DNA from: Candidatus Shapirobacteria bacterium
GTDB lineage: Bacteria > Patescibacteriota > Microgenomatia > UM-FILTER-40-11
Assembly (NCBI GenBank): GCA_020059745.1
Contig: JAGVBK010000002.1
Coordinates: 104,301 to 168,300 of the forward strand
Direction of reading: 5' to 3'
DNA length: 64,000 nt
Position 1 is the first letter of the stretch. Each line of letters begins with the position of its first letter. The translations under genes and the position numbers were made by a program. Under the pieces are notes generated by a model. That model worked only from the letters and a program-made list of their open reading frames with translations. It did not search any database and was not told the origin of the DNA. Of this stretch, positions 2,947 to 16,528 are shown piece after piece.

Positions 2947-5900
2947 TTAGTATACCCTAATTTTTTCCTGATTCAAAGCAACAATCGCGCTTATGGTTGC
3001 GAGCAGCAAGGTAAAACCAAAATATTGAAGATACTGGGGGATGAAAATCAGAACTACTCTGCTCTCGTTTTCCGAGCCAGGCAACACCCAACCGTTTTCC
3101 CAATTATTGACAAGAACATGATCATTAATCTCCCGGCCAACTAAAGGCAGTAGAAAAGCGGGTCTTTTAATTAAGCTTTCTCCTTCGAAGTAAGCTTTCC
3201 AGCCTTCATGATAAGACTGGGATAAGACAAGAAGGCTTTCCTGCCGTGGGGGGACATCGATTTTATAAAGGCTGGGGTTGGGGTGAGAACTTTCCGCCTT
3301 CATGTATTTAATTGGAGCCAAAGAAACATCTTTTTGGAAACGAATTCCAGAAAGAAAGTAGTATGGAATTGGGTTGATAGTAATCATCCCCAAATCATTG
3401 ACAGATTCATGCCTGCCAATAGAGATATTGTCAAAATGGAGCCGGTAGCCAATGCCTGATTTCTGCATCGGTGGTTGGATAATGAACTTCTCTCCTCCTT
3501 CTTTTTGAAGATAAAATTCCTGGTCTGCCCTTCTTGCACTTTGATTTTCCAGCCAAAAAAGCAGGCTTTTGCCTTTGACATTTTCATTCTCAACTTTAAT
3601 AAGATAGCCGAATTTATGAAGCAAATTCTCAAAACTAAAAGTGGCTGAGCAGTTGGTGGAATTAACGGCGCTAAGCCTTAGAAAGTTATTCCCCTGTTTA
3701 TTTGCAATTTCATTTTTGACTGTACCGAAACTGAATTGATTGCAGTTTTTAGCTTCTAAGCCTCCGGCAGTCGGATTAACTTCACCGCTGAAATAGCCCC
3801 CAACCTTAGGAACAATCACCTCGATATTCCTTCCCTGAACATTTACCTTTGGAATAAGATACTTAACATCGCTAAAGTCCCCGGGGTTTACCCAAATGAG
3901 TTCTCTGCCGTCAAAATCTGGAAGCCTTAGTTCATATGACAAAACCTCTTGAGGCACTTCCTTTGAAAAAATAAAGCTGTCTTTTGTTTCCTTAATATTA
4001 AAATCAAAACCTTCTGTCCCCCTGCCGGTAAAAATGGAACGGAACGGATAGTAGTAGTCCGCTTCTTTTTGCTCTGAATATATCCCCAAATCCAAAAAAG
4101 CCCGGTCATAACTTCCCCACCTGTAAGAAGAAGCCACTTTGGCAGTATCGGTAGAAATAAAGACATAATTTTCTATTGGATAGTCCAGATTAACTTTATA
4201 AAGCAGGATATTGCCAAAAGTTTTTTCAAGGCTGAATTTTGGCGAAGAAAACATCTCTTCAAGCTCGTCAAAACCCAGAGCTTTATAGTTGCCGGTATTG
4301 TAAATGTTTTTATCGACAAGCGCGTATTCTATTTGGTACTTATCAAATATCTTTTCAAATATTTCATTTTTCCTTGAAAAAAGAGCATACGACATTTCCC
4401 AGTAATAGTTCTCGTTTTGGCTGCTCCACATGTCAAAATTACGGTCTAGAATCGGCTGGTTAATACCATACCAAATAAAACCCGAGCCGGTATAATTCCA
4501 ACGGTAAAGACTCCAACCCCAAAAACTTGATTGGGGAAAATCGGCAATTCTCCCGTCTTTACCGCTTTTTTTAAGATAAGAAAAAAGCTCAAAATAGTTT
4601 TCGGGAATGCGGGCTTTTACCCTTGGGTAAAATAATTTACCCTGAAAAACCGGATACAAATAAAACACGGGCAAAAAAGCCAAAAGGACAATGATTAAGA
4701 GGCTCTTTTTTGAGTTTGCCTTTGAACTTAACCAAAAACAAAATGCACCAAAATACAAAGAAAGGCAAAAAGCAAGCAAAGCGGAAAACTTAGTAAAAGG
4801 AAATCTGAACATCTGAGAAAATAGCGGAAGCTTAAAGAAAGCTTTTGACAAAAGCGAAATAACCGGTGTTTCGTTGGCTAAAACTAAAAAAGACAAGAAG
4901 AAAACCGGCAAAAAAGAGATTAATTTTTTAAATTTTAAAAATGAAATTAAAGCGCCTGCCGTTCCTAAGAAAAAAAGCAAAAACCCAAAGAAAGAAATCA
5001 CCGGATTTTCGAGGTGTCCTGTCCAAGGCGCCATTAGATAATTCACTGTTCCGTTCTCACTTGTTTCCGTGGTATCAAACCAAAAACCTTTAAGAAGAAC
5101 GACATTTTTTAGATCCCCGTATTTTTTGTTTTTAAGTAAGTTGTCTTCGGTTGTCATCTGGCTAATTTTTGACTGGACCGTGATATTAACATCCGAAAAG
5201 ACAAAATAAAGATTTGGCAAAAGCCAAAAAGCGTTAGTGATAAAAATAAAAGCAAAAGAAAGCAAAACCCTCTTAAGACTGCCTTTGTTTTGCAAAAGAT
5301 AAACAAAAGAAGCCAAACCCCAAGCCATTAAATAGACCGCAAAAAAGGTGCCTACATATCCCTGTGGCACAGCCAGCAAATTCACCAAAAGAAGAAAAAT
5401 AAGGCTCTTTTTATCCCTTTTCTCCAGGAAATTAAGATTAACTAAAAACAACCAGGGCAAAGAAGCAAAGTGGTGAGAAAAAGCTTCAAAAGGAACATAA
5501 AAAAGCTGAATTGTGGCCAGGTTAAAAAGATAAAAGACAGAGCCGGCCAGAGCGGAAAGTTTTTTCTTACCTTTTCCTGCCAAGAGAAAAGAAAGTAAAA
5601 AGTAAATCCCCAAAGACCCCAGGTAAAGCATTAGAAAGTGGTAAAAATATCTGAGAAACGAACTTGGGAGAAACAAAGAAAAAATCCATAAAATTAGCTG
5701 CCTTGGCAAGTCTGCGGCATGGCCCATGCCACCCATTAAACCCAAGCCCTGATACTCCTGCCAGGAAGCAAAAAATGATCTTTTAAGATTAAGGCCAAAA
5801 TCAAACTCAGGATGAAGGTTATCCCAACCTGAAAGCCATGTTCCGGCATGAGAATTTGCAATGCTTATAGCCAAAAAGACGGCAGTTAAAATCAGCACCG

Positions 5901-5949
5901 GCCAAATGTCAATTACTTTAAGGAAAAATTGTTTAAAAAAGTTTTTCAT
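2947..5949 (-). CDS. Large polytopic membrane protein, GT-C-fold glycosyltransferase-like
   Basis: 1000 aa. The N-terminal half has many hydrophobic helices with an early GWDNLHPEFDF loop. The C-terminal roughly 450 aa is soluble. It neighbours GT1 and GT2 genes. The family assignment (AftD/DUF3367- or YfhO-like) is inference only. Confidence 0.45.
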   Translation of the reverse strand: MKNFFKQFFLKVIDIWPVLILTAVFLAISIANSHAGTWLSGWDNLHPEFDFGLNLKRSFFASWQEYQGLGLMGGMGHAADLPRQLILWIFSLFLPSSFLRYFYHFLMLYLGSLGIYFLLSFLLAGKGKKKLSALAGSVFYLFNLATIQLFYVPFEAFSHHFASLPWLFLVNLNFLEKRDKKSLIFLLLVNLLAVPQGYVGTFFAVYLMAWGLASFVYLLQNKGSLKRVLLSFAFIFITNAFWLLPNLYFVFSDVNITVQSKISQMTTEDNLLKNKKYGDLKNVVLLKGFWFDTTETSENGTVNYLMAPWTGHLENPVISFFGFLLFFLGTAGALISFLKFKKLISFLPVFFLSFLVLANETPVISLLSKAFFKLPLFSQMFRFPFTKFSALLAFCLSLYFGAFCFWLSSKANSKKSLLIIVLLAFLPVFYLYPVFQGKLFYPRVKARIPENYFELFSYLKKSGKDGRIADFPQSSFWGWSLYRWNYTGSGFIWYGINQPILDRNFDMWSSQNENYYWEMSYALFSRKNEIFEKIFDKYQIEYALVDKNIYNTGNYKALGFDELEEMFSSPKFSLEKTFGNILLYKVNLDYPIENYVFISTDTAKVASSYRWGSYDRAFLDLGIYSEQKEADYYYPFRSIFTGRGTEGFDFNIKETKDSFIFSKEVPQEVLSYELRLPDFDGRELIWVNPGDFSDVKYLIPKVNVQGRNIEVIVPKVGGYFSGEVNPTAGGLEAKNCNQFSFGTVKNEIANKQGNNFLRLSAVNSTNCSATFSFENLLHKFGYLIKVENENVKGKSLLFWLENQSARRADQEFYLQKEGGEKFIIQPPMQKSGIGYRLHFDNISIGRHESVNDLGMITINPIPYYFLSGIRFQKDVSLAPIKYMKAESSHPNPSLYKIDVPPRQESLLVLSQSYHEGWKAYFEGESLIKRPAFLLPLVGREINDHVLVNNWENGWVLPGSENESRVVLIFIPQYLQYFGFTLLLATISAIVALNQEKIRVY

Positions 5950-5959
5950 TTTGTTTAAC

Positions 5960-7240
5960 TTATCCGTTTAACAAATAAGCGTATTTTTCTCCGATTGCCG
6001 ACCAGCTTCTTTTTTCAGACATGATCTTGGAAAACTTTTTCATTTTCCCCTGCAAAACCTTGCTTTCCGACACTTCTTTTAATTTTTTAAACAAATCTTT
6101 TGAATCAAGACTAAAAATAATCTCTTCCATTTTAAGATTACTTTTTTCTAATGCCTCTTTTATGTCCAAAGAAAGGCAGTAAGCGCTTAAAGGCTCAGAA
6201 AACAAAACCGGCTTTTTATAGGAAAAGGCAATGGACAGTGGTCCGCTGCTGCTGACAAATATCCGGTAAGGAAGTATTACTACATCACTTAAGCTAAAAA
6301 AGTCGTTTATATTTTCTTCATTAATAAAGCCGGTTATTTCGATGTTTTTACCTGCTTTTTTAGCGCATTTGTAAATAGCGGCAATGAATTTTTTATAAAC
6401 CCTATCCTCTTCATGAGTTTTTGCCGGACCGCCGGCCATTATGAGTTTGATGTTTGTTTTTTTGTTCTTTGAAAAATAATGGCTTAAGGTTTTAACCAAC
6501 CAGTCCGAACCCTTATACCAAGTCAAAAAACCAAAACAAAGAACCACAAAATCACTCTCTTTAATTCTCATTTCTTTAAGTTTCACTCTTGAAAGAGCTT
6601 CTTTTCTTTTGGAAGTTCTTCCGTTTGGCTCAACTCCTAATGAAATAGTAACCACCTTTGAGCGGTCAGAGGTAAACTGAAGAGCATGGTTCCTTAGTAT
6701 TTCTTCAAAAGCCACTGTTTTATGACTTAGGTTAACTCCAAGAAAGTAAAGTGTTTTTAAAGCCAAGGTGTATGCTTTCGCCCGAAAACTGTCTTTTTTA
6801 ATTCCCAATTGTTCCACTGCTAAATTGGCATCAGTTAAAATGCCGTGAGAAACAAAATAAACTTTTTTTTGCATGAGCCTTAAAAATAAAAGCAGTGCCG
6901 GAACGCCGGCAAGAAGATAGCGTTTATTGCCGAATATCGCCCATTCAAAAGCAAAAAACACTTTTAAACAGTTTCTCTCCTTTAGTATCTCCCGCACAAT
7001 CTGCAAAAAAAGCTTTGGCTTGTTTCTATCCCAAACTCTTTTTACCTTGATTTTGTCTTCAAAGTATTCTTCTTTACCACCGTCAAGCTTGTCCGCCAAA
7101 ACCACAAACTTTAGTTTTTTCTCTTTTTCCATGCTGGAGAGCAGGGTTTTTTTGGAATAAGGAGCAACTGCCGAATAAGGGTGGTTGTGTAAACTTCCTT
7201 TAGGAGGATAAGTGGTAATAACTAGAATTTTTTCTTTCAT
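5960..7240 (-). CDS. Glycosyltransferase, GT1/GT4-like
   Basis: 426 aa with Rossmann-like halves. The C-terminal half shows GFINEE...SDVVILPY...SSGPL, resembling the GT-B retaining glycosyltransferase signature. Confidence 0.65.
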   Translation of the reverse strand: MKEKILVITTYPPKGSLHNHPYSAVAPYSKKTLLSSMEKEKKLKFVVLADKLDGGKEEYFEDKIKVKRVWDRNKPKLFLQIVREILKERNCLKVFFAFEWAIFGNKRYLLAGVPALLLFLRLMQKKVYFVSHGILTDANLAVEQLGIKKDSFRAKAYTLALKTLYFLGVNLSHKTVAFEEILRNHALQFTSDRSKVVTISLGVEPNGRTSKRKEALSRVKLKEMRIKESDFVVLCFGFLTWYKGSDWLVKTLSHYFSKNKKTNIKLIMAGGPAKTHEEDRVYKKFIAAIYKCAKKAGKNIEITGFINEENINDFFSLSDVVILPYRIFVSSSGPLSIAFSYKKPVLFSEPLSAYCLSLDIKEALEKSNLKMEEIIFSLDSKDLFKKLKEVSESKVLQGKMKKFSKIMSEKRSWSAIGEKYAYLLNG

Positions 7241-7255
7241 AGGGCAGAAAAGAAA

Positions 7256-8062
7256 TTAATATTCGAAAACTTTTTTAAAAGAAGAAACCACTACCTTTCT
7301 GAATTGTGGCCTTATCTGATAAATATTCTTTAGATCATTAACTTTAATGGCAAACATTTCTTTGAAAGCTCTCAAAATATCCCTTACCAGGTTAACTTTA
7401 CTTGACTTACTTATATGTTTCCAAGTAACAGGCAGCTCGACAATTCTGTAATTAAGCTTGTTGCTGACATAAATTACTTCCGGATCCAGCCCCCATCTTT
7501 CTTGAGTCAATCTGGGAAAAACATCGCGACAGACTTGGTAAGAAAAAACCTTAAAGCCGCCGGTAAAATCAGCAATTTTAATTCCTAAAACAGTTTGGAG
7601 AATTTTACTGTGAACCGTGCCGATTATTTCCCTAACCATACTTCTTTTAACCAAGGAAATAGTTTGGGGAAGCTTTTTGCTGCCTACTAAAACTTCATAA
7701 CCTTTATGCATAAAGAGAGAAAATTCTTTAAGGTTTTCAAGAGGAATTGACATGTCGCCGTCTAAAAACATGCCAAAATCAGTATTTACCTCTTTTACTC
7801 CCTGCATGACCGCATATCCCCGGCCTTTGTTTAAGGGATAGGAAATAAGGAAAATTTCCGTTTGGTCAATAATATTTCCGGAGTACTGTCTTTGGAAATT
7901 TTTCAGTAAAGAAAGAGTTTTGTCTTTACTGCCGTCATCAACAAAAATAAGTTTTTCAATCTTAATGCTTTTTGGGCTTTTGTAATTGACAAGATAACCC
8001 AAAGTTTTTTTAAGCCTTTTTTCTTCATTATAGAGAGGGACAATGACAGTTAATGTTTTCAT
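7256..8062 (-). CDS. GT2 glycosyltransferase (polyprenol-phosphate sugar transferase-like)
   Basis: 268 aa. Contains VIVPLYNEE, VDDGSKDKT and a DGD motif, typical of dolichyl/undecaprenyl-phosphate glycosyltransferases. Confidence 0.8.
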   Translation of the reverse strand: MKTLTVIVPLYNEEKRLKKTLGYLVNYKSPKSIKIEKLIFVDDGSKDKTLSLLKNFQRQYSGNIIDQTEIFLISYPLNKGRGYAVMQGVKEVNTDFGMFLDGDMSIPLENLKEFSLFMHKGYEVLVGSKKLPQTISLVKRSMVREIIGTVHSKILQTVLGIKIADFTGGFKVFSYQVCRDVFPRLTQERWGLDPEVIYVSNKLNYRIVELPVTWKHISKSSKVNLVRDILRAFKEMFAIKVNDLKNIYQIRPQFRKVVVSSFKKVFEY

Positions 8063-8403: not shown

Positions 8404-9549
8404 CTACTTGACAAGTCCCAGATACTGCTCCCGCCAGAATGTGGCTGCAATAGCCATTCCTTCCCACCCTACGGGAATTCTGGCTTTGGGATAGCTTGGG
8501 ATCAATATCAAGTTTGGGTCGGTCGGCACCTCCAGACGCTCTCCGTCGAACGGAAATTCGAACGGATTCCTGATGAAAAACGCGTCTTGGGGAGGTGCCT
8601 GCCAGTTGCCGTTGCCCAGATCGACGAGCCTGACACTCGGTGCAAGGCCGAATGTTGAGCGGATCCACGCTTCGTTCACCTGTGAAGGCGAAAAAGCGGG
8701 GGTCGCACTGGGAACGACGGGCGTTGGGGCAGCTAGCGGAACTGGTGTCTGAGTTGGCACAACTTGGGCTACCAAAGTAGCTGTCGGCTGTACCAAACTT
8801 GAGACCTGACCGATTTGACCAACTGAGGTCACAGGGATCACGCCAGTGATCCTGTGATACTCGTCAATACTGAAAGGCCTGAACGTGATCCCCTGTACAG
8901 GACCACACCAACCAGCAGGAATTCCTGACCCAACTGCTTCTGGGGGAAAACCCTCTTCTAGGGTCCTCCCGTGCAACTCCCGCTGTCTGCGGTCCGCCAT
9001 CCAGCCATCTTGCCGGAAAGGAGTGAAGTTACAAACCTCAATGGAAACAATATTCCCAAAGAGGTCTTTCTCCTCCGGCACCTTCCAGCTCCATGGCTCA
9101 CCCCTAGCCCTGCTAACCTCGCTGGGCTCAATGGACGGCTGAGCCTGTCTCCTTGTTGCAAGGATAACAAACTCATCCACTGACCTTGGCCAATCCTCCA
9201 TGACCTCAAGGCCTAGAACCCTGATGTCGTCCAGAGTCTGACCGCCAGTCAGAGTAAGCCCGAAAGCCTGAACCCTAGGTGACGGTGCCATTGCAACCGT
9301 CGGTTCGGATTGAACAGCCTCCTGACCGGGAGTCGGAGTCACAAGGACCTCAACAACCCGAGTCACTTCGACCGGAACCTCCTTCTCGACAACGACGGTC
9401 TCCTTGACCACCTGAGGGACGACCCTGGTGACCTCGACCGGGACCGTCTCCTTGACGATCTCGGGCGTTGGTGTCAGAGCACTTTCCCTGAGCGCACAAC
9501 CCGTGATCATCACGATAGCCACCATTACAACCAGGAATATCATCTTCAT
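8404..9549 (-). CDS. Lipoprotein, unknown function (GC-rich island)
   Basis: 381 aa. It has a signal peptide with lipobox MITGC and an AGGAGG-type SD upstream. An N-terminal tandem KETV.VEVTRVV repeat and Pro/Thr linkers are present. I recognised no family. Confidence 0.6.
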   Translation of the reverse strand: MKMIFLVVMVAIVMITGCALRESALTPTPEIVKETVPVEVTRVVPQVVKETVVVEKEVPVEVTRVVEVLVTPTPGQEAVQSEPTVAMAPSPRVQAFGLTLTGGQTLDDIRVLGLEVMEDWPRSVDEFVILATRRQAQPSIEPSEVSRARGEPWSWKVPEEKDLFGNIVSIEVCNFTPFRQDGWMADRRQRELHGRTLEEGFPPEAVGSGIPAGWCGPVQGITFRPFSIDEYHRITGVIPVTSVGQIGQVSSLVQPTATLVAQVVPTQTPVPLAAPTPVVPSATPAFSPSQVNEAWIRSTFGLAPSVRLVDLGNGNWQAPPQDAFFIRNPFEFPFDGERLEVPTDPNLILIPSYPKARIPVGWEGMAIAATFWREQYLGLVK

Positions 9550-10285: not shown

Positions 10286-11068
10286 CTACTCGAACCAAAC
10301 CACTGCGGTCCAGACCTTAACGTGCCCCGGCCCCTTGAATTTGTCTAGGTTTTCCCCAAGAATTGGGTTCCACCCGGTGACCAAGGCATTCTCGGGCACA
10401 GCGAGCATGACAGGGTTTCCACCACTGTTATAGTCAAAGCTGCACCCATCCTTCCGAAGGGCCCAGACACCACCAGTGACAACATTGGCTTGAAGCCAAT
10501 CGATGCTTGGGCAACCCTCGGGTTGGTCCGGAATCGGGAGCCTCGGCAAAGGCGGATTGAACACCACTGGGAGAAACAAAATACTTTCTCCAGGTGTCGG
10601 AACCACCGTTGGCTCGGCGGTTGCCATTGCAGTTGGTTCCGGCGTGGCGGTCGGCGTTGCCGTTACAGTTGGTACTGTAACCGTTGGCTCGGCCGTTGCC
10701 GTGGCGCTCTGTGGCTCAATCCACAGAACCCCGTCCCAAAATTCTCCCGAACCAGGTCCTTCCACCAGAAGGTCTTTTTGGCCCTCCGGCTCCGGCCGCG
10801 GATCCCAACCAGTCATCTTGGATCCACCCGCGGGGACAACGAGCAAGATCGGCTCCTCAAACGGGCCTCTTCCGCTCTCGAAAACAAAATCACAACCTTC
10901 GTCGGGCCCGACTTTCCACATCGAGAGTTCACCCCCGATGTTTTCCGCGACCCACTCGAGATCCGGGCACTCTTGCGGGGGTTCCGGAATGGCAACCTCC
11001 GCTGAGAGCTGGAACGGCAAAACTGCCGCCAGCGCGACCACAACCGCGAGTACAAGACTGCGCTTCAT
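10286..11068 (-). CDS. Secreted protein with internally duplicated 2-Cys domain (GC-rich island)
   Basis: The start is taken at MKRSLVLAVVVALAAV (signal peptide), with an AGGAGGGG SD. Two homologous ~85-aa domains (CPDLEW...GCDF...TGWDP and CPSIDW...GCSF...TGWNP) are joined by a Thr/Pro/Ala linker. Confidence 0.6.
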   Translation of the reverse strand: MKRSLVLAVVVALAAVLPFQLSAEVAIPEPPQECPDLEWVAENIGGELSMWKVGPDEGCDFVFESGRGPFEEPILLVVPAGGSKMTGWDPRPEPEGQKDLLVEGPGSGEFWDGVLWIEPQSATATAEPTVTVPTVTATPTATPEPTAMATAEPTVVPTPGESILFLPVVFNPPLPRLPIPDQPEGCPSIDWLQANVVTGGVWALRKDGCSFDYNSGGNPVMLAVPENALVTGWNPILGENLDKFKGPGHVKVWTAVVWFE

Positions 11069-11216
11069 TTCCCCTCCTGGGATCATAAGGATGGCAAATA
11101 CTCAATGTGCTTCTGGTCTCACCAGCCAGATTGGCGCTTACGCCTTTCTAGTTATTGAAACCAGAAAAGGAAATTGAACTCCTAGTTTCCTTTCCCGGCT
11201 TCAACCGGAAACTTCT

Positions 11217-11849
11217 TTATTTTTTAAGACGAAGCAGCATGTATCCGGCAAGACCGGCAATTGAGGTTAAAGGGGCAACGAAAAGCAAACTAGAACCTGT
11301 GGCAGGAGTTTCACCTAAAACTTTTTTAACTTTGGTAACACAAACTTTAGAAGTGTCTTCTCTTTCTTCACCGCCGAATTTAGCCCTGACAGTGTTTTTG
11401 ACATCACAGTCAAAATCTTTATCACTCGGAGTGGAAACAACAACTGTTTCAATCTGTTTCTCTTCTGATTCGCCAGGTCCTAAATCTAAAATATCAAAAG
11501 TAAGGCTTCCTGACTCAAGCTTTAACTCAGCCGGAAGAAAGTCTGTAACAGTCACTTTTTCAAAAGTGCTGTTGCTGTTGTTAATGATTTTTATTCTGAA
11601 AATAACTTTTTCGCCAATGCTGAATTTATAGCCTTCAGGAGTAATGTCGGCTAAATTGTCTTCGAACCTTTTGTCAATCGGGCTCCAAACCTTTTTATCT
11701 AAAACAAGCTCTTCAACTTCGGTACAGACTTCGCCGCCGCCGTATAAAGATTCGCAACGGATTGCTCCAAAAGCATTTTTAGGAGAAATAATAAAAGCCG
11801 CAATAAATAAAATTGCGGTTAACAAAGCATGTTTCCTGTCCATTTTCAT
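11217..11849 (-). CDS. Surface protein with DUF11-like repeat domain and C-terminal sorting signal
   Basis: It has a signal peptide and a V.F.I...N.....F..V.V.D.LP..L core shared with the 12846-13490 protein. The C-terminus reads GETPATG, then a hydrophobic helix and an RLKK tail, a variant of LPXTG. Confidence 0.65.
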   Translation of the reverse strand: MKMDRKHALLTAILFIAAFIISPKNAFGAIRCESLYGGGEVCTEVEELVLDKKVWSPIDKRFEDNLADITPEGYKFSIGEKVIFRIKIINNSNSTFEKVTVTDFLPAELKLESGSLTFDILDLGPGESEEKQIETVVVSTPSDKDFDCDVKNTVRAKFGGEEREDTSKVCVTKVKKVLGETPATGSSLLFVAPLTSIAGLAGYMLLRLKK

Positions 11850-11974
11850 TTTTATTAAGGCTAAATAATAAAGACATGGCGTATTATAGGGCATGTTTAT
11901 TGCTTTGTCAACTGCCGATTTCTTGATTTTAGTAAACTTTTAAGAGATAATATCGCCGTTTACTAGAGGATATT

Positions 11975-12730
11975 ATGGAAATAATTCTTTTTGATTCATC
12001 CTGGGAAAAGGAAAAAATAATACCGGTTGATATTCCGGTTCCTAAACCTGTGGAACCAAAAATTTCTTCTTCTTTCCCTTTCGCAAAATTTGCCAGAGGC
12101 CTTGCTTTGGGCTTAATCGGCATTTCTCTTTTTGTTTTTGGCGCAGCAGTTTTGCCAATAATCAAGCTGGAATTAAGCTACCGCCTTAATCCTAAAAATG
12201 AAGCTGAAGCAAGAGAATACTTTCCCAAAACTCCAAGTTATGAGGTTGCCTTAGAAAACAAAAAGCAGCTTGCCTCACAAGAAGCAGCCAAATACGGGGT
12301 TGATACAGATTTTTCTCTGGTCATCCCTAAAATTTCTGCTACCTCAAAAATCATTGCCAATGTGGACCCGGCAGACGAAAATAAATACAAAGCTGCTCTT
12401 AAAAATGGAGTTGCCCACGCCAGCGGCACCAAATTCCCTGGCAGCAAAGGCACTATTTATCTTTTTGCCCATTCCACCAACACTTTAGTTAATGTTTCCC
12501 GCTACAATGCTGTCTTTTATCTAGTTAAAGAGCTGGAACCCGGAGACCAGGTTATCATCTTTTTTGCCGGTCTAAAATATTCGTACCGGGTAACCGAAAA
12601 GGTCATCACTACTCCAGAAGATTTATCTTTGATAAAAGACAACCAATCAACTGAAAAGCTAATTCTTCAAACCTGTTGGCCGCCGGGAACAACCTTAAAA
12701 CGGCTCATGGTTGTAGCAGAAAGAATTTAA
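11975..12730 (+). CDS. Sortase-family transpeptidase (copy 1)
   Basis: 251 aa with an N-terminal TM helix. Contains IYLFAHST (catalytic His region) and LILQTCWPPGT (TLxTC-like Cys motif). Confidence 0.8.
   Translation: MEIILFDSSWEKEKIIPVDIPVPKPVEPKISSSFPFAKFARGLALGLIGISLFVFGAAVLPIIKLELSYRLNPKNEAEAREYFPKTPSYEVALENKKQLASQEAAKYGVDTDFSLVIPKISATSKIIANVDPADENKYKAALKNGVAHASGTKFPGSKGTIYLFAHSTNTLVNVSRYNAVFYLVKELEPGDQVIIFFAGLKYSYRVTEKVITTPEDLSLIKDNQSTEKLILQTCWPPGTTLKRLMVVAERI
12281..12392 (+). repeat. Near-identical 112-nt tract shared by the two sortase paralogs (copy 1)
   Basis: Differs at only 2 positions from 13871-13982, while the flanking coding sequence is clearly diverged. Shorter identical blocks lie at 12449-12482 = 14039-14072 and 12653-12687 = 14243-14277. 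Confidence 0.9.
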
Positions 12731-12845
12731 CTTTCCATTTAAAAGTTCCCGAAATTAGTTTTCAAAGAGCTTAAATTGAAAATAATGGTTGGGGTTTAGA
12801 GCAGTTTTAGAAGCATGTAACAACATGGTAATAACTTTGTTAAAG

Positions 12846-13490
12846 CTATCTTCTTTTACCAAAGAAGACCAAGGCCAGACCCAAGAGTCCGTTTACTAAA
12901 GAAAGACCCAAAGTTGCTGGCATGGCACCGCTTCCGGTTTTCGGTAAAACCGTTGGTTTCCTCTCAACAACTTCTCGTCTGCTTACGCAAATTCTTGAGG
13001 TATCTTTATCCTCAATTCCGTCAGCTTTAACCGCTACTTCGTTAAAATCACAGATAACATCCTTATCTTTTGGAAATCTGCCTTCACTTACTACCCTTAC
13101 CCTGATATCCCTTTCCTCCACTTCATTGCGGTCAAAATCTGTAATATCAAAATCCAAATCTCCAGAAACAAACTCTAAAAATGAAGGAAGAGTATCTCTT
13201 ACCTCAACCCTGTCAAAGTCTCTTTCTCCTGTATTTTCCACCCTAATCCTGAAAACAACTTCATCCCCGGAAAAAAACTCATGGTCAGTAAAATCAAGGT
13301 TGTCAACAAAACGGCCGTCTCTTGGGTCCTGCACTTTTTTGTCAACATCAATTTCAATCGGCGGGCAAACATCATACTGAGGCTCACAAATATCAGAAGC
13401 AGCCGCATCTTTCCTCAAAACAAAAAAAAATGAAGCGGATAAAAAGATTAAGCCAAGTTTTCTTAATGTCATTTTGCTTACAATTTCCAT
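12846..13490 (-). CDS. LPXTG-anchored surface protein with DUF11-like repeat domain
   Basis: 214 aa with a signal peptide. The canonical LPKTG is followed by a hydrophobic segment and a GKRR tail. It is a paralog of the 11217-11849 product. Confidence 0.75.
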   Translation of the reverse strand: MEIVSKMTLRKLGLIFLSASFFFVLRKDAAASDICEPQYDVCPPIEIDVDKKVQDPRDGRFVDNLDFTDHEFFSGDEVVFRIRVENTGERDFDRVEVRDTLPSFLEFVSGDLDFDITDFDRNEVEERDIRVRVVSEGRFPKDKDVICDFNEVAVKADGIEDKDTSRICVSRREVVERKPTVLPKTGSGAMPATLGLSLVNGLLGLALVFFGKRR

Positions 13491-13603
13491 TTCTATTTAT
13501 TATTCACAGGGTGCCAAATCGTGTCAAGCAGAAAGAAACATTTTTAGTTCAAATTTATTTTTTTAGCTTGAATTTCCTAGCTTTTTTTTAATATAAACAG
13601 AGT

Positions 13604-14320
13604 ATGGAAATAATTCTTTATGAGGCTAAAGATAAAAAAAGCCTTGTTTTAAAAGAGTTTACAAAACTTTCTTTCATAAACTCCAAAGCCGCAGCCGAAT
13701 ACCTGGGCTACAGCTTTCTTGCCGCCTCCTTAATGTTTCTATTGGTCGGCTTTGCCCCGATTATTAAAGAAGAAGCAAAATATCAACTAAAAAGACTTTT
13801 TACTTTCTCTGCTCCGGAGGCAAGCGTTGAAAGTGTTTTTTTTGAAAACTCAAAAAAAATTGTTGAAGAGGAAGCAGCCAAATACGGGGTTGATACAGAT
13901 TTTTCTCTGGTCATCCCCAAAATTTCTGCAACCTCAAAAATCATTGCCAATGTGGACCCGGCAGACGAAAATAAATACAAAGAACTTCTAAAAACCGGAG
14001 TGGCACACGCGACAGGCACAAAGTTTCCCGGAAACAATGGCACTATTTATCTTTTTGCCCATTCCACCAACAACCCGGAAAACATTGTCCGCTACAATGC
14101 GGTTTTTTACCTTTTAAAAGAACTTGAGCCTGAAGATGAAGTCATTGTTTTTTTTGCCGGCCAAAAATTTGTCTATAAAGTTACCAAAAACTTTATTGCC
14201 GAAGCCGGTGACCTAAAATGGCTCTCGGGAGATGAGAATGAAGAAAAGCTAATTCTTCAAACCTGTTGGCCGCCGGGGACAACTTTCAAACGGCTCATTG
14301 TTGAAGCTAAACCTTTATAA
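13604..14320 (+). CDS. Sortase-family transpeptidase (copy 2)
   Basis: 238 aa with the same IYLFAHST and LILQTCWPPGT motifs as copy 1. Confidence 0.8.
   Translation: MEIILYEAKDKKSLVLKEFTKLSFINSKAAAEYLGYSFLAASLMFLLVGFAPIIKEEAKYQLKRLFTFSAPEASVESVFFENSKKIVEEEAAKYGVDTDFSLVIPKISATSKIIANVDPADENKYKELLKTGVAHATGTKFPGNNGTIYLFAHSTNNPENIVRYNAVFYLLKELEPEDEVIVFFAGQKFVYKVTKNFIAEAGDLKWLSGDENEEKLILQTCWPPGTTFKRLIVEAKPL
13871..13982 (+). repeat. Near-identical 112-nt tract shared by the two sortase paralogs (copy 2)
   Basis: Partner of 12281-12392, with 2 mismatches by direct comparison. Confidence 0.9.
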
Positions 14321-14359: not shown

Positions 14360-16528
14360 TTGATGGACAGAAACCAAATGACTGGAGAAGAATTACCTTT
14401 CTCATTGATTGAGATCCGTTTACCTAAATCAAGCGAAAAAACCCCGGAAGCGGCGGCTCAGCTTTTTGCGGCCTTTTCCTCCCTTCCTAAAAAGTCTTTT
14501 TTGTCTTTTAAACCTCCAGTAAGCATTTGTTTTGAAATTGTTTGTGTTGACCAGGTCGTCCATTTTCTCATTTCCTGCCCTAAGGAAATGAAAGGTTATG
14601 TTGAAAGCCAGCTTTCTGCCCAATATCCGGAAAGCATCCTTCTGGAAATTCCCAAAGATTATCTTGCCGGCTACACCCAAAACTCAAACCCAAACCTGGG
14701 CCAGCTTACTTTATCAAACAGCTTTTATCTGCCTTTGCGAACCTATAAGGAAGTTAAAGACTCTGATCTTATTTCTTCTGTTTTGGGCGCTATGTCCAAA
14801 GCCGGGCCGGAAGATTTTATGGCTATCCAATTTATTATCGCCCAAGCCGGTAACTGGCAAGGCTATGCCCAGGGAATCATTGACAGAGGAATCCCCTCAG
14901 GAGAGGAAGGAAAAACTCTTCCCCACCCCCAGGCAAAACACATTGCTGAAAAAATAAGCAGCGGTGGCTTTTGGACCGCCATAAGAATCATTGCCAGTTC
15001 AGAAGAACTTCTAAGAAATATTTCCAATTCCTTTTCTTCCTACCAAAGCGATGTCAATGGCTTAAAACTTAAAAAAATAAGCCCGAGAAACAAAAAAAAG
15101 CTGCTTGAATCTTGTCTCAAAAGGTCTTTCGAAATGGCTCCTGCTAACCAGGTTCTTAACCTTGACGAGCTCGCTTCTCTTTGGCACCCTCCATCAAAGC
15201 ATTTGTCGGGCATTAAAAACATCATGTGGACACAAACCATTATGAGTGAGCCTCCCCTAAACCTGCCTACAGCAATCGACCTTAATGAAGCTGACAAAAA
15301 AGAAATCAATTTCATAGCCCGGACTGAGCATAAAAACAAGGTGGCAACCTTTGGCATTAAGAAAAAAGACCGTAGAAGGCATGTTTACATTATCGGGAAA
15401 AGCGGTACCGGAAAATCAACTTTAATTGCCAATATGGCCATAAACGACTTAAGGAACCGGGAAGGTCTGGCAGTTATTGATCCTCACGGCGATTTAACTG
15501 AAATTCTTTTGGATTATATTCCCTCTTTTAGGATAAACGAAACTTGCTATCTTGACCCGAGCGACACCGCCAACCCTTTTCATCTTAATCCCCTTGAGGT
15601 TAAAAACCCGGCCCATAGAGAACTTGTGGCCTCGAATATTGTCGCCATTTTTTATAAGCTCTACCACTATTCCTGGGGGCCAAGGCTTGAATACATTTTA
15701 AGAAATACAATCCTGACTTTACTGCAAACCCCGCAGCCAACACTTCTTCAGATTACGGAAATGCTTTCCAATAAAAACTTCAGGAAAAGAGTGGTTGATA
15801 ACCTCAATGACCCGGTCTTAAAAAGCTTCTGGGTTAATGAGTTTGAAAAAATGTCTGAAAAAATGATGAATGAAGCGGTTTCTCCGATTTTAAATAAAGT
15901 CGGCCAGTTTACTTCCTCTCCCACCATCAGACAAATTGTCGGCTCTTATCACTCAACAGTTGACCTTGAGGGTATCATGAATTCCGGCAAAGTTTTGCTT
16001 GTTAACCTTTCCCAAGGAAAAATTGGAGAAGACAATGCTGCGCTTTTAGGTGCCATGATTATTACCCAGCTTCAACTGGCGGCCATGAACAGGATTAATG
16101 TTGCTGAAGAACAAAGGAGAGATTTTTATCTTTATGTTGACGAGTTTCAAAACTTTGCCACCAGTGCCTTTGTTAAAATACTTTCTGAGGCAAGAAAATA
16201 CCGCTTAGACCTTTGTCTGGCAAATCAGTATGTCGGCCAGCTTGAAGAAGACCTGCAAAAAGCAATTTTCGGGAATGCGGGAACTTTAATTTCTTTTGTT
16301 GTCGGTGCCGGAGATGCAGGCTACATGGCCCAGGAATTCGGCCAGATTTATAAAGAAGAAGATTTAGTTAATCTGGGCATGTATCAGGTGGCAATGAAGC
16401 TTTGCATCGACAACTTAACATCTTCTCCGTTTTTGGCTACCACCATGCCTCTTCCAAGATGCAAAAACCAAAACAGGTCAAAAGTGCTTAAGGTCTCCAA
16501 GGAAAGACACACGGTCAAGCAAAAATAA
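14360..16528 (+). CDS. VirD4/TraD/TraG-like P-loop NTPase (type IV secretion coupling-protein family) with orphan N-terminal domain
   Basis: 722 aa. Walker A is IIGKSGTGKST, followed by VIDPHGD. Walker B-like is FYLYVDEFQNF, with a KYRLDLCLANQY region. The N-terminal ~330 aa have no obvious TM helices and no motif I recognise. Confidence 0.65.
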   Translation: MMDRNQMTGEELPFSLIEIRLPKSSEKTPEAAAQLFAAFSSLPKKSFLSFKPPVSICFEIVCVDQVVHFLISCPKEMKGYVESQLSAQYPESILLEIPKDYLAGYTQNSNPNLGQLTLSNSFYLPLRTYKEVKDSDLISSVLGAMSKAGPEDFMAIQFIIAQAGNWQGYAQGIIDRGIPSGEEGKTLPHPQAKHIAEKISSGGFWTAIRIIASSEELLRNISNSFSSYQSDVNGLKLKKISPRNKKKLLESCLKRSFEMAPANQVLNLDELASLWHPPSKHLSGIKNIMWTQTIMSEPPLNLPTAIDLNEADKKEINFIARTEHKNKVATFGIKKKDRRRHVYIIGKSGTGKSTLIANMAINDLRNREGLAVIDPHGDLTEILLDYIPSFRINETCYLDPSDTANPFHLNPLEVKNPAHRELVASNIVAIFYKLYHYSWGPRLEYILRNTILTLLQTPQPTLLQITEMLSNKNFRKRVVDNLNDPVLKSFWVNEFEKMSEKMMNEAVSPILNKVGQFTSSPTIRQIVGSYHSTVDLEGIMNSGKVLLVNLSQGKIGEDNAALLGAMIITQLQLAAMNRINVAEEQRRDFYLYVDEFQNFATSAFVKILSEARKYRLDLCLANQYVGQLEEDLQKAIFGNAGTLISFVVGAGDAGYMAQEFGQIYKEEDLVNLGMYQVAMKLCIDNLTSSPFLATTMPLPRCKNQNRSKVLKVSKERHTVKQK

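Follow-up and report, generated by a model that had tools for sequence, protein, structure and literature searches.

Positions 11217-14320 of the 64-kb stretch of DNA analysed here (the window), from an uncultured Microgenomates (Patescibacteria) bacterium, comprise two head-to-head cassettes, each with a minus-strand gene for a small CLIPPER surface protein and a plus-strand sortase gene. On balance, we favour the explanation that these are paralogous sortase/substrate cassettes that anchor small proteins to the cell wall, that the TPATG tail of one substrate is a genuine sorting motif, and that the two sortases divide the work. The division would most likely assign LPKTG to Srt2 and TPATG to Srt1. 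The tandem module of the original prediction is present in full, with all four ORFs:

11217-11894, minus strand: longest ORF of Sub1, 225 aa
11217-11849, minus strand: likely Sub1 gene from ATG 11849, 210 aa, a secreted single-domain CLIPPER (DUF11) protein
11883-11911, minus strand: Sub1 sigma-70 promoter, consensus TTGACA-17-TATAAT, 12 of 12 matches
11975-12730, plus strand: Srt1, membrane-anchored sortase, 251 aa
12846-13490, minus strand: longest ORF of Sub2, 214 aa
12846-13472, minus strand: likely Sub2 gene from ATG 13472, 208 aa, a CLIPPER paralogue
13499-13527, minus strand: Sub2 sigma-70 promoter, near-consensus TTGACA-17-AATAAT, 11 of 12 matches
13604-14320, plus strand: Srt2, sortase paralogue, 238 aa

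The promoters lie over or just upstream of the start codons of the longest ORFs, which makes the two internal ATG codons the likely starts; for Sub2, this start gives a protein that matches the database protein P0189. Srt1 and Srt2 are the sole sortases in the window, Sub1 and Sub2 are its sole CLIPPER proteins, and their C-termini carry the only two xPxTG signals followed by hydrophobic and basic segments found there. The identical four-gene order was found again in two further lineages, L084 and L173. Purifying selection acts on all four genes, and both substrates are real genes; the dN/dS values against the L084 orthologues are 0.12 for Sub1, 0.22 for Sub2, and 0.12 and 0.09 for the sortases. 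Srt1 has both substrates as neighbours (Sub1 head-to-head, Sub2 tail-to-tail), and gene order is an ambiguous guide to which of them it serves.

The two substrates are 38% identical, and their TPATG and LPKTG motifs share alignment columns one by one. The DUF11-like fold proposed for both was confirmed: PF01345 (DUF11, now CLIPPER) matches Sub1 with 31.0 bits and Sub2 with 31.7 bits (cutoff 24.6), and both proteins exhibit a CnaA-like β-sandwich. Sub1 consists of a signal peptide, a Cys-x9-Cys hairpin, the β-sandwich and the C-terminal TPATG sorting signal. Lys67 and Asp118 are invariant in CLIPPER relatives, and Asn167 is invariant in 36 sequences and conserved in at least 90% of 114. These residues are located on strands 48-56, 96-104 and 146-158 of the substrate model. 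Lys67 and Asn167 probably form an intramolecular isopeptide bond, with Asp118 as the predicted catalyst.

The C-termini contain two different sorting motifs, as originally described, with the Leu of LPXTG replaced in Sub1:

11220-11309, minus strand: tripartite sorting signal of Sub1, composed of TPATG (codons 11295-11309), a 20-residue hydrophobic segment and RLKK; the C-terminus reads ...KVLGETPATG-SSLLFVAPLTSIAGLAGYMLL-RLKK
12849-12947, minus strand: sorting signal of Sub2 with canonical LPKTG (codons 12933-12947); the C-terminus reads ...PTVLPKTG-SGAMPATLGLSLVNGLLGLALVFFG-KRR

The LPXTG_anchor model TIGR01167 matches Sub2 with 17.2 bits (cutoff 15.9), and the tripartite tail is visible. 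Sub1 does not match this model at E<=0.1, though its tripartite layout is present and aligned with LPKTG. Seven other TPxTG proteins match neither TIGR01167 nor PEP-CTERM or other C-terminal sorting models, even at E<=1, and neither the curated sorting-signal models nor any searchable paper covers TPxTG. The TPATG of Sub1 is unchanged in P0121, P0123 and L173, and orthologues at 84-89% identity and more than 100 distant relatives have it too; LPKTG is likewise kept in the Sub2 orthologues of L084 and L173. Among 61 distinct small Patescibacteria CLIPPER proteins from a metagenome sample that was seeded with C[QE][PT][IQ]YGGG[EQ], a motif of the N-terminus, sorting-motif position 1 is Thr in 33, Leu in 19, Ser in four and Val in two, with Ala, Gln and Ile once each; the C-termini are TPxTG in 33/61 and LPxTG in 19/61. 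A profile search, in a sample biased by word seeding, returned 75 TPATG, 13 TPPTG and 7 TPSTG tails. A 114-sequence CLIPPER alignment shows no variation at the Pro, Thr and Gly of the motif, which argues for a motif that is read by an enzyme. L-type and T-type tails are alike in register, in a frequent Gly-Pro-Glu continuation, in the transmembrane segment and in the Arg/Lys tail, and L-type members directly adjoin sortase genes. The two tail types are homologous within one protein family. The Sub1 signal looks functional and is conserved in orthologues and distant relatives. TPATG is not a decayed LPXTG and appears to be a genuine sorting motif. TPxTG is the commonest motif of the small Patescibacteria CLIPPER family and an uncatalogued variant. 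Because it escapes the standard LPXTG model, sortase substrates are under-annotated in Patescibacteria genomes.

Srt1 and Srt2 are 53% identical and match PF04203 with 76.4 and 74.5 bits, respectively (cutoff 26.6). The catalytic residues of Srt1 are His166 (LFAHS), Cys234 (LILQTC) and Arg243. All three are invariant in 23 aligned members of the sortase family, and His166 and Cys234 are also invariant among 203 further members. A hydrophobic segment at approximately 40-62 lies inside a predicted helix (36-71) ahead of the β-barrel (113-250), which is consistent with an N-terminal membrane anchor and an extracytoplasmic catalytic domain. Neither enzyme reaches the cutoff of any NCBIfam model for classes A-F and GN. 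The Srt1 scores (cutoffs in parentheses) are 63.5 for SrtD (140), 53.2 for class D (165), 49.4 for class C (160), 32.8 for class E (160), 16.6 for class F (166) and 20.2 for class GN (158), and Srt2 exhibits a similar profile. Foldseek ranks class C first, followed by D, A and E, with close E-values. Srt1 and Srt2 belong to one Patescibacteria-specific sortase clade, to which classes C and D are nearest.

The two enzymes differ in the β6/β7 loop:

12614-12658, plus strand: β6/β7 loop of Srt1, which reads PEDLSLIKDNQSTEK, with Leu219 where the family has Trp
14204-14248, plus strand: β6/β7 loop of Srt2, which reads AGDLKWLSGDENEEK, with the Trp of the family kept

In the AF2 model, loop 213-227 is located between strands 200-212 and 228-235, with residue 219 inside the loop. 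Across the family, this residue is Trp in 117 members, Tyr in 50, Phe in 21, Leu in eight and His in three; it is Leu, His, Leu and Leu in the Srt1 clade, where the His belongs to the L084 orthologue, and Trp in both members of the Srt2 clade. Residue 219 precedes the catalytic Cys by 15 residues, a spacing that we take to equal that of V168/L169 in S. aureus SrtA. Sequence register and predicted secondary structure would map it to the Leu pocket. Recognition takes place primarily at the β6/β7 loop, and mutants at V168/L169 (e.g. L169H) accept XPKTG and APATG (PMC9126251).

Residue 219 covaries with the motif of the adjacent substrate. Among 38-40 non-redundant sortase/adjacent-substrate pairs, Trp219 is present in 21/32 Leu-motif pairs versus 0/6-8 non-Leu pairs (Fisher p = 0.004 to 0.001, uncorrected for phylogeny). 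Sortases with Tyr, Phe, Leu or other residues adjoin LPxTG substrates in 11/32 pairs; therefore, Trp loss does not exclude Leu substrates. A distant sortase of L035, which adjoins QPKAG, has a convergent 'DLSLLK' loop. In the window, L084 and L173, the partner of TPATG is a 'SLIK'/'NHIK' sortase and that of LPKTG a 'KWLS' sortase. The original prediction gave each substrate its own sortase, of divergent specificity. The divergence agrees with the loop difference and with Trp219 never adjoining a non-Leu motif; the one-to-one assignment draws on gene order and covariation and is loosened by the non-Trp sortases beside LPxTG substrates. We regard separate specificities of Srt1 and Srt2 as plausible.

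Alternatively, the paralogues could be redundant, with both enzymes processing both substrates and the duplication serving dosage, regulation or robustness; this reading is possible but on the unlikely side. It takes the sortase clade to tolerate Leu, Thr, Gln, Ala, Ser, Ile and Val at position 1, and it is favoured by the Tyr-, Phe- and Leu-type sortases that adjoin LPxTG substrates and by the common family and class-HMM profile of Srt1 and Srt2. The two enzymes also show no rate asymmetry: they stand at equal distance from the other family members (58.0% vs 58.3% identity), and nothing points to faster evolution of Srt1. In L001 and L003, two sortases accompany a single intact substrate, LPKTG, and L091 combines two Trp-type sortases with two LPKTG substrates; therefore, the sortase duplication is not explained by motif divergence, and these relatives show that it preceded the motif split. 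Moreover, Srt1 and Srt2 are being homogenised by gene conversion:

12279-12392 (Srt1) and 13869-13982 (Srt2), plus strand: gene-conversion tract, 111/114 nt identical, which encodes QEAAKYGVDTDFSLVIPKISATSKIIANVDPADENKYK

Identity between the paralogues reaches 96-100% here, synonymous sites included, whereas orthologues share 67-80%. The tract, however, ends before the specificity loop, and the loop difference has been maintained despite conversion elsewhere in the genes. The loop and motif differences have been kept together in three lineages, at up to 31-34% protein divergence, which, with the restriction of Trp219 to Leu motifs, argues against full redundancy and for the preferred reading of two sortases that divide the work.

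In the favoured mechanism, Sec would export each substrate, which would fold as one CLIPPER (CnaA-like) β-sandwich, probably locked by the Lys67-Asn167 isopeptide bond and two disulfides. The hydrophobic and basic C-terminal tail would keep the substrate in the membrane. The membrane-anchored sortase, with His166, Cys234 and Arg243, would then cut xPxTG between Thr and Gly and pass the substrate to peptidoglycan, which would leave a small surface protein or adhesin linked covalently to the wall. A wall acceptor exists, as PBP2 and MreB are both encoded in the window. Srt2, with the Trp219 loop, would handle the LPKTG of Sub2, and Srt1, with the Leu/His219 loop, the TPATG of Sub1, with possible overlap.

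A pilus-like fibre, which had also been suggested, is weakly supported, and we consider it quite unlikely. One sortase would polymerise CLIPPER subunits head-to-tail via a Lys and the other would link this fibre, or a subunit at its base or tip, to the wall, with the differing motifs routing subunits to the right enzyme, like IPNTG/LPXTG in Bacillus cereus BcpB/BcpA. Class C (pilin-specific) sortases have an N-terminal lid with a DP[FWY] motif that occludes the active site. This motif is absent from residues 72-112 (NPKNEAEAREYFPKTPSYEVALENKKQLASQEAAKYGVDTD), which connect the membrane anchor to β1; the sole DP in that sortase is in 'VDPADE' after β2, and the class C score is 49 vs 160. A search of the substrates for a YPKN-type pilin motif found none. 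Their sole invariant lysine in 26 sequences, K67, is the residue predicted for the intramolecular isopeptide bond, on the first strand as in CLIPPER; the next best lysines are conserved in 20/26 and 19/26 (<=77%). In addition, the substrates are single-domain, relatives mostly carry a single sortase and a single substrate, and the CLIPPER-type fold is a generic one of wall-anchored adhesins and MG domains.

The description as a minimal two-component system proved too small, as the cassettes are located in a larger conserved cluster:

2947-5949, minus strand: polytopic membrane protein, 1000 aa
5960-7240, minus strand: GT1 glycosyltransferase, by Pfam/NCBIfam matches
7256-8062, minus strand: GT2 polyprenyl-phosphate-sugar-synthase-like glycosyltransferase, by Pfam/NCBIfam matches
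14360-16528, plus strand: VirD4/TraG-like (T4CP-like) P-loop ATPase, 722 aa, without an N-terminal membrane domain

The genes at 2947-8062 follow Sub1 downstream on its strand. The 1000-aa protein has homologues 1-6 kb downstream of a CLIPPER gene on the same strand in approximately 26/29 loci found, and this synteny suggests that the three genes probably belong to the same surface cluster. The ATPase matches TrwB_AAD_bind (41 bits, cutoff 20.5), TraG-D_C (26.4, cutoff 22) and DUF87, and all equivalog and subfamily T4CP models are far under cutoff. None of its segments is of transmembrane grade; the maximum 19-residue Kyte-Doolittle mean is 1.77, in the predicted soluble N-domain. The locus is chromosomal and adjoins frr-tsf-rpsB, and no VirB4, relaxase or other T4SS gene was found in the larger neighbouring ORFs scanned, which are housekeeping and surface genes. 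The ATPase adjoins CLIPPER genes in L001, L003, L005, L006, L010, L084, L091, L107 and L173, and also adjoins 13 of the 61 metagenome proteins (12 TPxTG, one APATG). It is an orphan VirD4-like protein whose position beside these CLIPPER genes is conserved across Microgenomates. In other genomes, the ATPase-adjacent TPxTG genes have no sortase within 10 kb, and the enzyme that processes their products is putative.

A reading in which sortases do not act on the TPATG tail, with Sub1 held by its C-terminal transmembrane helix or the TPxTG-PE tail handled by an exosortase-, archaeosortase- or rhombosortase-like enzyme, is highly improbable: the missing LPXTG_anchor match of Sub1, the ATPase-adjacent TPxTG-PE genes with no sortase within 10 kb and a 'G-P-E + TM + basic' layout that we read as loosely like PEP-CTERM are outweighed by the failure of the seven TPxTG proteins to match any such model, the homology to L-type tails that adjoin sortases and have the same GPE continuation, the TPxTG proteins of Sub1, L096 and L133 that are themselves sortase-adjacent, and the invariant Pro, Thr and Gly.

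Several known systems share features with the cassettes. As in Gram-positive conjugation loci that encode LPXTG adhesins and a VirD4 coupling protein (e.g. pCF10 PrgB), a T4CP-like ATPase gene adjoins sortase-anchored surface proteins (PMC12857230); unlike these loci, the window has a chromosomal locus with no T4SS gene in the ORFs examined and an ATPase without a membrane domain. CPR VirD4 homologues are mostly orphans of this kind, and CPR have no reported PrgB-like adhesin (10.1101/2025.01.22.634366). Synteny ties sortase-anchored CLIPPER proteins to these abundant orphan ATPases, which yields a concrete testable hypothesis. We consider it unlikely, at present, that the CLIPPER proteins, clade sortases, ATPase, glycosyltransferases and polytopic protein form one Patescibacteria-specific surface apparatus with TPxTG and LPxTG as orthogonal sorting codes. 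If true, loop-variant sortases would read the two motifs to place different subunits, and the apparatus could be the missing adhesin or fibre of the orphan CPR T4CP-like ATPases, involved in host attachment or DNA traffic. Described CLIPPER proteins (PF01345; crystal structure 9IFR) are mostly long tandem-repeat fibrillar adhesins, whereas those of the window are single-domain proteins of approximately 210 aa, each of which has a signal peptide and a sorting signal of its own.

Clostridioides difficile SrtB offers a natural case of a sortase whose substrates, (S/P)PXTG, carry a small or polar residue instead of the Leu of LPXTG (PMC4155245, PMC5118464). One class B sortase serves all substrates in C. 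difficile, whereas the window has a Thr variant, non-class-B enzymes and an adjoining LPKTG paralogue pair. The bcpA-srtD-bcpB locus of Bacillus cereus similarly clusters sortase and substrate genes, with two substrates that differ at position 1; IPNTG is read only by a dedicated sortase and LPXTG by both (PMC8225981). This logic, a variant motif with a dedicated sortase, is that proposed for Srt1 and Srt2. In contrast to the multi-domain B. cereus pilins with a YPKN lysine and a dedicated class C sortase with a lid, the window encodes single-domain substrates without a pilin motif and paralogous sortases of an unclassified clade, and polymerisation is unsupported. A parallel for the loop is the engineered S. 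aureus SrtA F40 (V168M/L169H...; XPKTG/APATG), in which changes at the position matching residue 219 by register shift or relax position-1 specificity (PMC9126251); the L084 orthologue of Srt1 likewise has His there. The F40 variants are laboratory class A enzymes; Srt1 and Srt2 are a natural close pair in one genome with substrates that differ at position 1, which makes them a test system for how the β6/β7 loop reads that position. The pair might also supply protein engineering with orthogonal TPxTG-specific ligases.

Four genes alternate across 11217–14320 in the order Sub1 (minus strand), Srt1 (plus), Sub2 (minus) and Srt2 (plus). Both plus-strand proteins match the sortase family PF04203 (76.4 and 74.5 bits; cutoff 26.6), and each minus-strand substrate carries one DUF11 domain, now named CLIPPER in Pfam (31.0 and 31.7 bits; cutoff 24.6), which confirms the two tandem sortase/substrate modules and the shared DUF11-like domain of the original prediction. 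The sortases are 53% identical to each other and the substrates 38%. The TPATG motif of Sub1 aligns exactly with the LPKTG motif of Sub2, and both tails are tripartite, with the motif, approximately 20 hydrophobic residues and Arg/Lys. No further sortase, CLIPPER protein or such tail was found in the rest of the 64-kb window. The promoters of both substrates lie in divergent intergenic regions and are directed into the genes for Sub1 and Sub2. Because these promoters overlie or directly adjoin the start codons of the longest ORFs, the true N-termini of Sub1 and Sub2 are probably shorter.

11217–11849, minus strand: Sub1, probable ATG start at 11849, placed by the promoter
11883–11911, minus strand: Sub1 promoter, sigma-70 consensus (12/12 matches)
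12846–13472, minus strand: Sub2, probable ATG start at 13472, placed by the promoter
13499–13527, minus strand: Sub2 promoter, near-consensus sigma-70 (11/12 matches)

Srt1 is identical to a database entry, 'sortase [Candidatus Microgenomates bacterium]', on a 206-kb contig. The remaining window is ordinary chromosome with frr, tsf, rpsB, NrdD, TopA, PBP2, MreB, SHMT and tRNAs. With such neighbours (frr-tsf-rpsB, NrdD, TopA, PBP2, MreB and SHMT) and conserved synteny, a conjugative or mobile element was ruled out for the ORFs examined. The organism makes peptidoglycan, the acceptor needed by sortases. Of the 32 2-kb bins across 1–64000, 30 show negative GC skew (cumulative −3.7), consistent with a single replichore whose strands are strongly asymmetric. 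The most likely function of the locus, in our reading and with modest confidence, is that two paralogous sortases with different loops and at least partly distinct motif preferences attach two small surface proteins, each probably stabilised by an isopeptide bond, covalently to the cell wall.

The sortase family (3515 matches) is essentially restricted to Patescibacteria, and the catalytic His166, Cys234 and Arg243 are invariant. Class assignment by HMMs, as originally proposed, failed: neither Srt1 nor Srt2 reaches any curated NCBIfam class cutoff, the best scores being 53–63 bits for class D (cutoffs 140–165) and 49 bits for class C (cutoff 160). The AlphaFold2 (AF2) sortase model has a pLDDT of ~80–96 over most of the catalytic domain, falling to 63 near residues 171–180. 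A Foldseek search with this model ranks class C best (E ~1e-12) with classes D, A and E close behind, the class C lid motif is absent, and PDB sequence matches are weak (E 4e-6 at best). Assignment to a known class was therefore given up, and both enzymes are treated as an unclassified Patescibacteria clade. A cytoplasmic N-terminal motif, MEIILYD, precedes the membrane anchor in nearly all clade members (11975–11995 and 13604–13624 in the window). A neighbour-joining tree meant to trace 'substrate-side' and 'ATPase-side' sortases as deep orthologues from genome to genome gave bootstrap support of only 0–1%; the only solid groupings join Srt1 and Srt2 with their respective counterparts at L084, a related metagenome locus (each 100%). 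Clade-specific changes at highly conserved columns amount to four trivial ones, and the informative Srt1/Srt2 differences fall in variable loop columns.

In the AF2 model, residues 213–227 form the β6/β7 loop and β7 ends at Cys234. Residue 219 (Srt1 numbering) lies 15 residues ahead of this catalytic Cys, a spacing that we take, by our own count, to equal that of V168/L169 in Staphylococcus aureus SrtA. Among 203 family members, this position is occupied by Trp (117), Tyr (50), Phe (21), Leu (8) or His (3); it is Trp in the Srt2 clade and Leu, His, Leu and Leu in the Srt1 clade. Just past the catalytic His, the Srt1 clade has 'TLV' and Srt2 has 'NPE'. Primary recognition takes place at the β6/β7 loop, and SrtA mutations at V168/L169, including L169H, allow XPKTG and APATG to be accepted (PMC9126251). 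When sortases are paired non-redundantly with their neighbouring substrates, Trp219 occurs in 21 of 32 cases where position 1, the first residue of the xPxTG motif, is Leu, and in 0 of 6–8 where it is Thr, Gln or Ala (loci L053 and L086 included; Fisher p 0.004 to 0.001, uncorrected for phylogeny). Convergence is seen at L035, where a phylogenetically distant sortase beside a QPKAG substrate has the loop 'DLSLLK'. All 11 Levybacteria/Levyibacteriota sortases in the sample are non-Trp, none with an adjacent substrate, and a Levybacteria TPATG CLIPPER protein exists (P0383).

We read these covariations as Trp219 going with Leu-only recognition, loss of which would open position 1. If so, Srt1 is likely the TPATG enzyme, possibly accepting both motifs, and Srt2 the LPKTG enzyme. 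The proposal that each substrate has its own sortase is plausible from gene order and covariation. Against a strict split, sortases with Tyr, Phe, Leu or other non-Trp residues also adjoin LPxTG substrates. Two further observations speak against a strict split: some relatives have two sortases without two motifs, and the overall rate of Srt1 is not raised, with no asymmetry in a relative-rate test for Srt1 acceleration.

The full four-gene layout also occurs in two other metagenomic lineages, L084 and L173, and in all three TPATG is on the first substrate and LPKTG on the second. The L084 proteins are 66–89% identical to their window counterparts, and the Sub1 and Srt1 counterparts at L173 are ~84% and ~78% identical, respectively. 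The dN/dS values between the window and L084 are 0.12 (Sub1), 0.12 (Srt1), 0.22 (Sub2) and 0.09 (Srt2). Sub1 is far less diverged from its L084 orthologue (4219–4896; 89% amino acid identity, dS 0.54) than are its three neighbouring genes (66–73%, dS 0.95–1.8), possibly because high expression strongly constrains its codons, or because Sub1 was recently exchanged between lineages. In the distant syntenic relative L001, two adjacent sortases accompany a single substrate with LPKTG; L003 adds an 81-residue remnant to this gene content, and L091 has two cassettes with LPKTG in both. These layouts indicate that the duplication is older than the motif difference, and those of L001 and L003 that both sortases can persist after loss of the second substrate. 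The L003 remnant (6711–6956, minus strand), located between the sortases, has an N-terminal transmembrane segment and a C-terminal helix resembling the Sub2 tail, and contains neither a CLIPPER domain nor xPxTG, which gives it the look of a second substrate that has decayed.

Simple redundancy of the two sortases, which sits comfortably with such layouts, is a possible reading that we consider clearly less probable than partly distinct preferences. A gene-conversion tract joins 12279–12392 in Srt1 with 13869–13982 in Srt2 (111 of 114 nt identical, synonymous sites included). Orthologues are only 67–80% identical over this region, and the L084 paralogues are 70–80% identical and lack such a tract, which points to recent sequence exchange between Srt1 and Srt2 in the window lineage. 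Despite this gene conversion, the specificity loop remains different between the two enzymes.

The Sub1 model (pLDDT 87) begins with a signal helix and a Cys-x9-Cys hairpin, followed by a sandwich of nine strands and, after a short linker, the C-terminal helix. Lys67 and Asp118 are invariant, and Asn167 is conserved in at least 90% of a 114-sequence alignment; in the model the three residues are on the strands that bear the isopeptide Lys, catalytic Asp and Asn of CLIPPER domains (PMC12617251). The four invariant Cys residues suggest two disulfides. A pilus-like fibre had also been envisaged, and a single-sequence PDB search gave one match, the SpaA pilin, which is non-significant (E 0.17); a PDB profile search with the substrate family gave none at E ≤ 0.01. 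Candidate isopeptide residues are in place. No second conserved lysine is present in the substrates, which argues against polymerisation, and we regard a fibre as unlikely.

The difference in sorting motif proved sound. TPATG is retained in close orthologues and in relatives with only 26–40% identity. A profile search recovered more than 100 small (~230-residue) Patescibacteria CLIPPER proteins with TPxTG-Pro-Glu, a hydrophobic segment and an Arg/Lys end (TPATG 75, TPPTG 13, TPSTG 7, LPKTG 8), with counts biased towards TPATG because candidates are gathered through shared 5-residue words. For this reason the census was redone on metagenome contigs, with the N-terminal C[QE][PT][IQ]YGGG[EQ] motif as the sole seed. 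Position 1 in the resulting 61 distinct proteins is Thr in 33, Leu in 19, Ser in 4, Val in 2 and Ala, Gln and Ile in 1 each. The sortase-adjacent CLIPPER genes are of the Leu (13) or Thr (2) type, and those adjoining a VirD4-like ATPase with no sortase nearby of the Thr (12) or Ala (1) type, which makes Sub1 one of the uncommon sortase-adjacent Thr members. An exhaustive representative search was dominated by very large DUF11 adhesins with many repeats and added only ~7 useful short homologues. With a dN/dS of 0.12, TPATG in orthologues and widespread TPxTG, a degenerate Sub1 motif or a Sub1 pseudogene was ruled out; judged by sequence, TPATG is a real, common motif. A non-sortase fate for Sub1, which the NCBIfam LPXTG_anchor model does not match although it matches Sub2, is very improbable, since no C-terminal sorting model, PEP-CTERM included, matches the TPxTG-Pro-Glu tail (none even at E ≤ 1 for seven other TPxTG proteins). 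No paper linking TPATG or TPXTG with a sortase was found in the literature searched. Overall, the twin cassettes and two motifs of the original prediction stand, and its interpretation is borne out in part only.

Synteny leads us to infer a wider cluster membership around the cassettes. The neighbouring genes are as follows, those on the minus strand all lying downstream of Sub1.

14360–16528, plus strand: VirD4/TraG-like P-loop ATPase, 722 residues, following Srt2, without membrane domain
10286–11086 and 8404–9549, minus strand: secreted proteins with Pro/Thr/Ala/Val-rich linkers, no family match
7256–8062, minus strand: GT2, best matches the polyprenyl-phosphate sugar synthases PgfS, ArnC and AglJ, all far below cutoff
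5960–7240, minus strand: GT1, downstream on the Sub1 strand
2947–5949, minus strand: 1000-residue membrane protein, ~8 N-terminal and one C-terminal transmembrane segments

The N-terminal domain of the ATPase is soluble and corresponds to Pfam DUF8128 in precomputed matches. The ATPase or a homologue (e.g., L088, 8781–10946; L122, 5101–7269) adjoins small CLIPPER genes at numerous Microgenomates loci, whether or not sortases are present, and the order rho, CLIPPER (TPxTG-Pro-Glu) and convergent ATPase, with no sortase within 10 kb, recurs in many of them. No single contig was found that has a sortase as well as a TPxTG CLIPPER gene beside the ATPase; L171 lacks a sortase, and the candidate pair P0011 and P0323 was dropped as a coincidental match. 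For CPR genomes, a preprint reports 5713 VirD4 homologues, of which only 148 are near virB4, and no PrgB-like adhesins (10.1101/2025.01.22.634366). The TPxTG code and this orphan-ATPase link are the parts worth following up.

GC content rises to 0.47–0.52 at 8–11 kb, over the secreted-protein genes, from ~0.40 in the rest of the window. A 266-residue secreted protein apparently consists of two ~90-residue Cys-containing repeats linked by TATAEPTVTVPTVTATPTATPEP, and its homologues adjoin the Sub1 orthologues in L084 and L173. Because the same Ala/Pro/Thr/Val-rich genes occupy the same place in L001, L003, L084 and L173, misassembly or foreign DNA was ruled out. The 1000-residue protein has no Pfam or NCBIfam match. 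Its homologues were found at 29 loci, and at ~26 of these they lie 1–6 kb downstream of a CLIPPER gene that has the same orientation. GT2-CLIPPER fusions also occur (P0186, P0228 and L091 9113–10648). GT1, GT2 and the 1000-residue protein may form a surface-protein glycosylation module, and we take these genes to resemble extracytoplasmic glycosylation of surface proteins such as the Pgf system of Streptococcus mutans.
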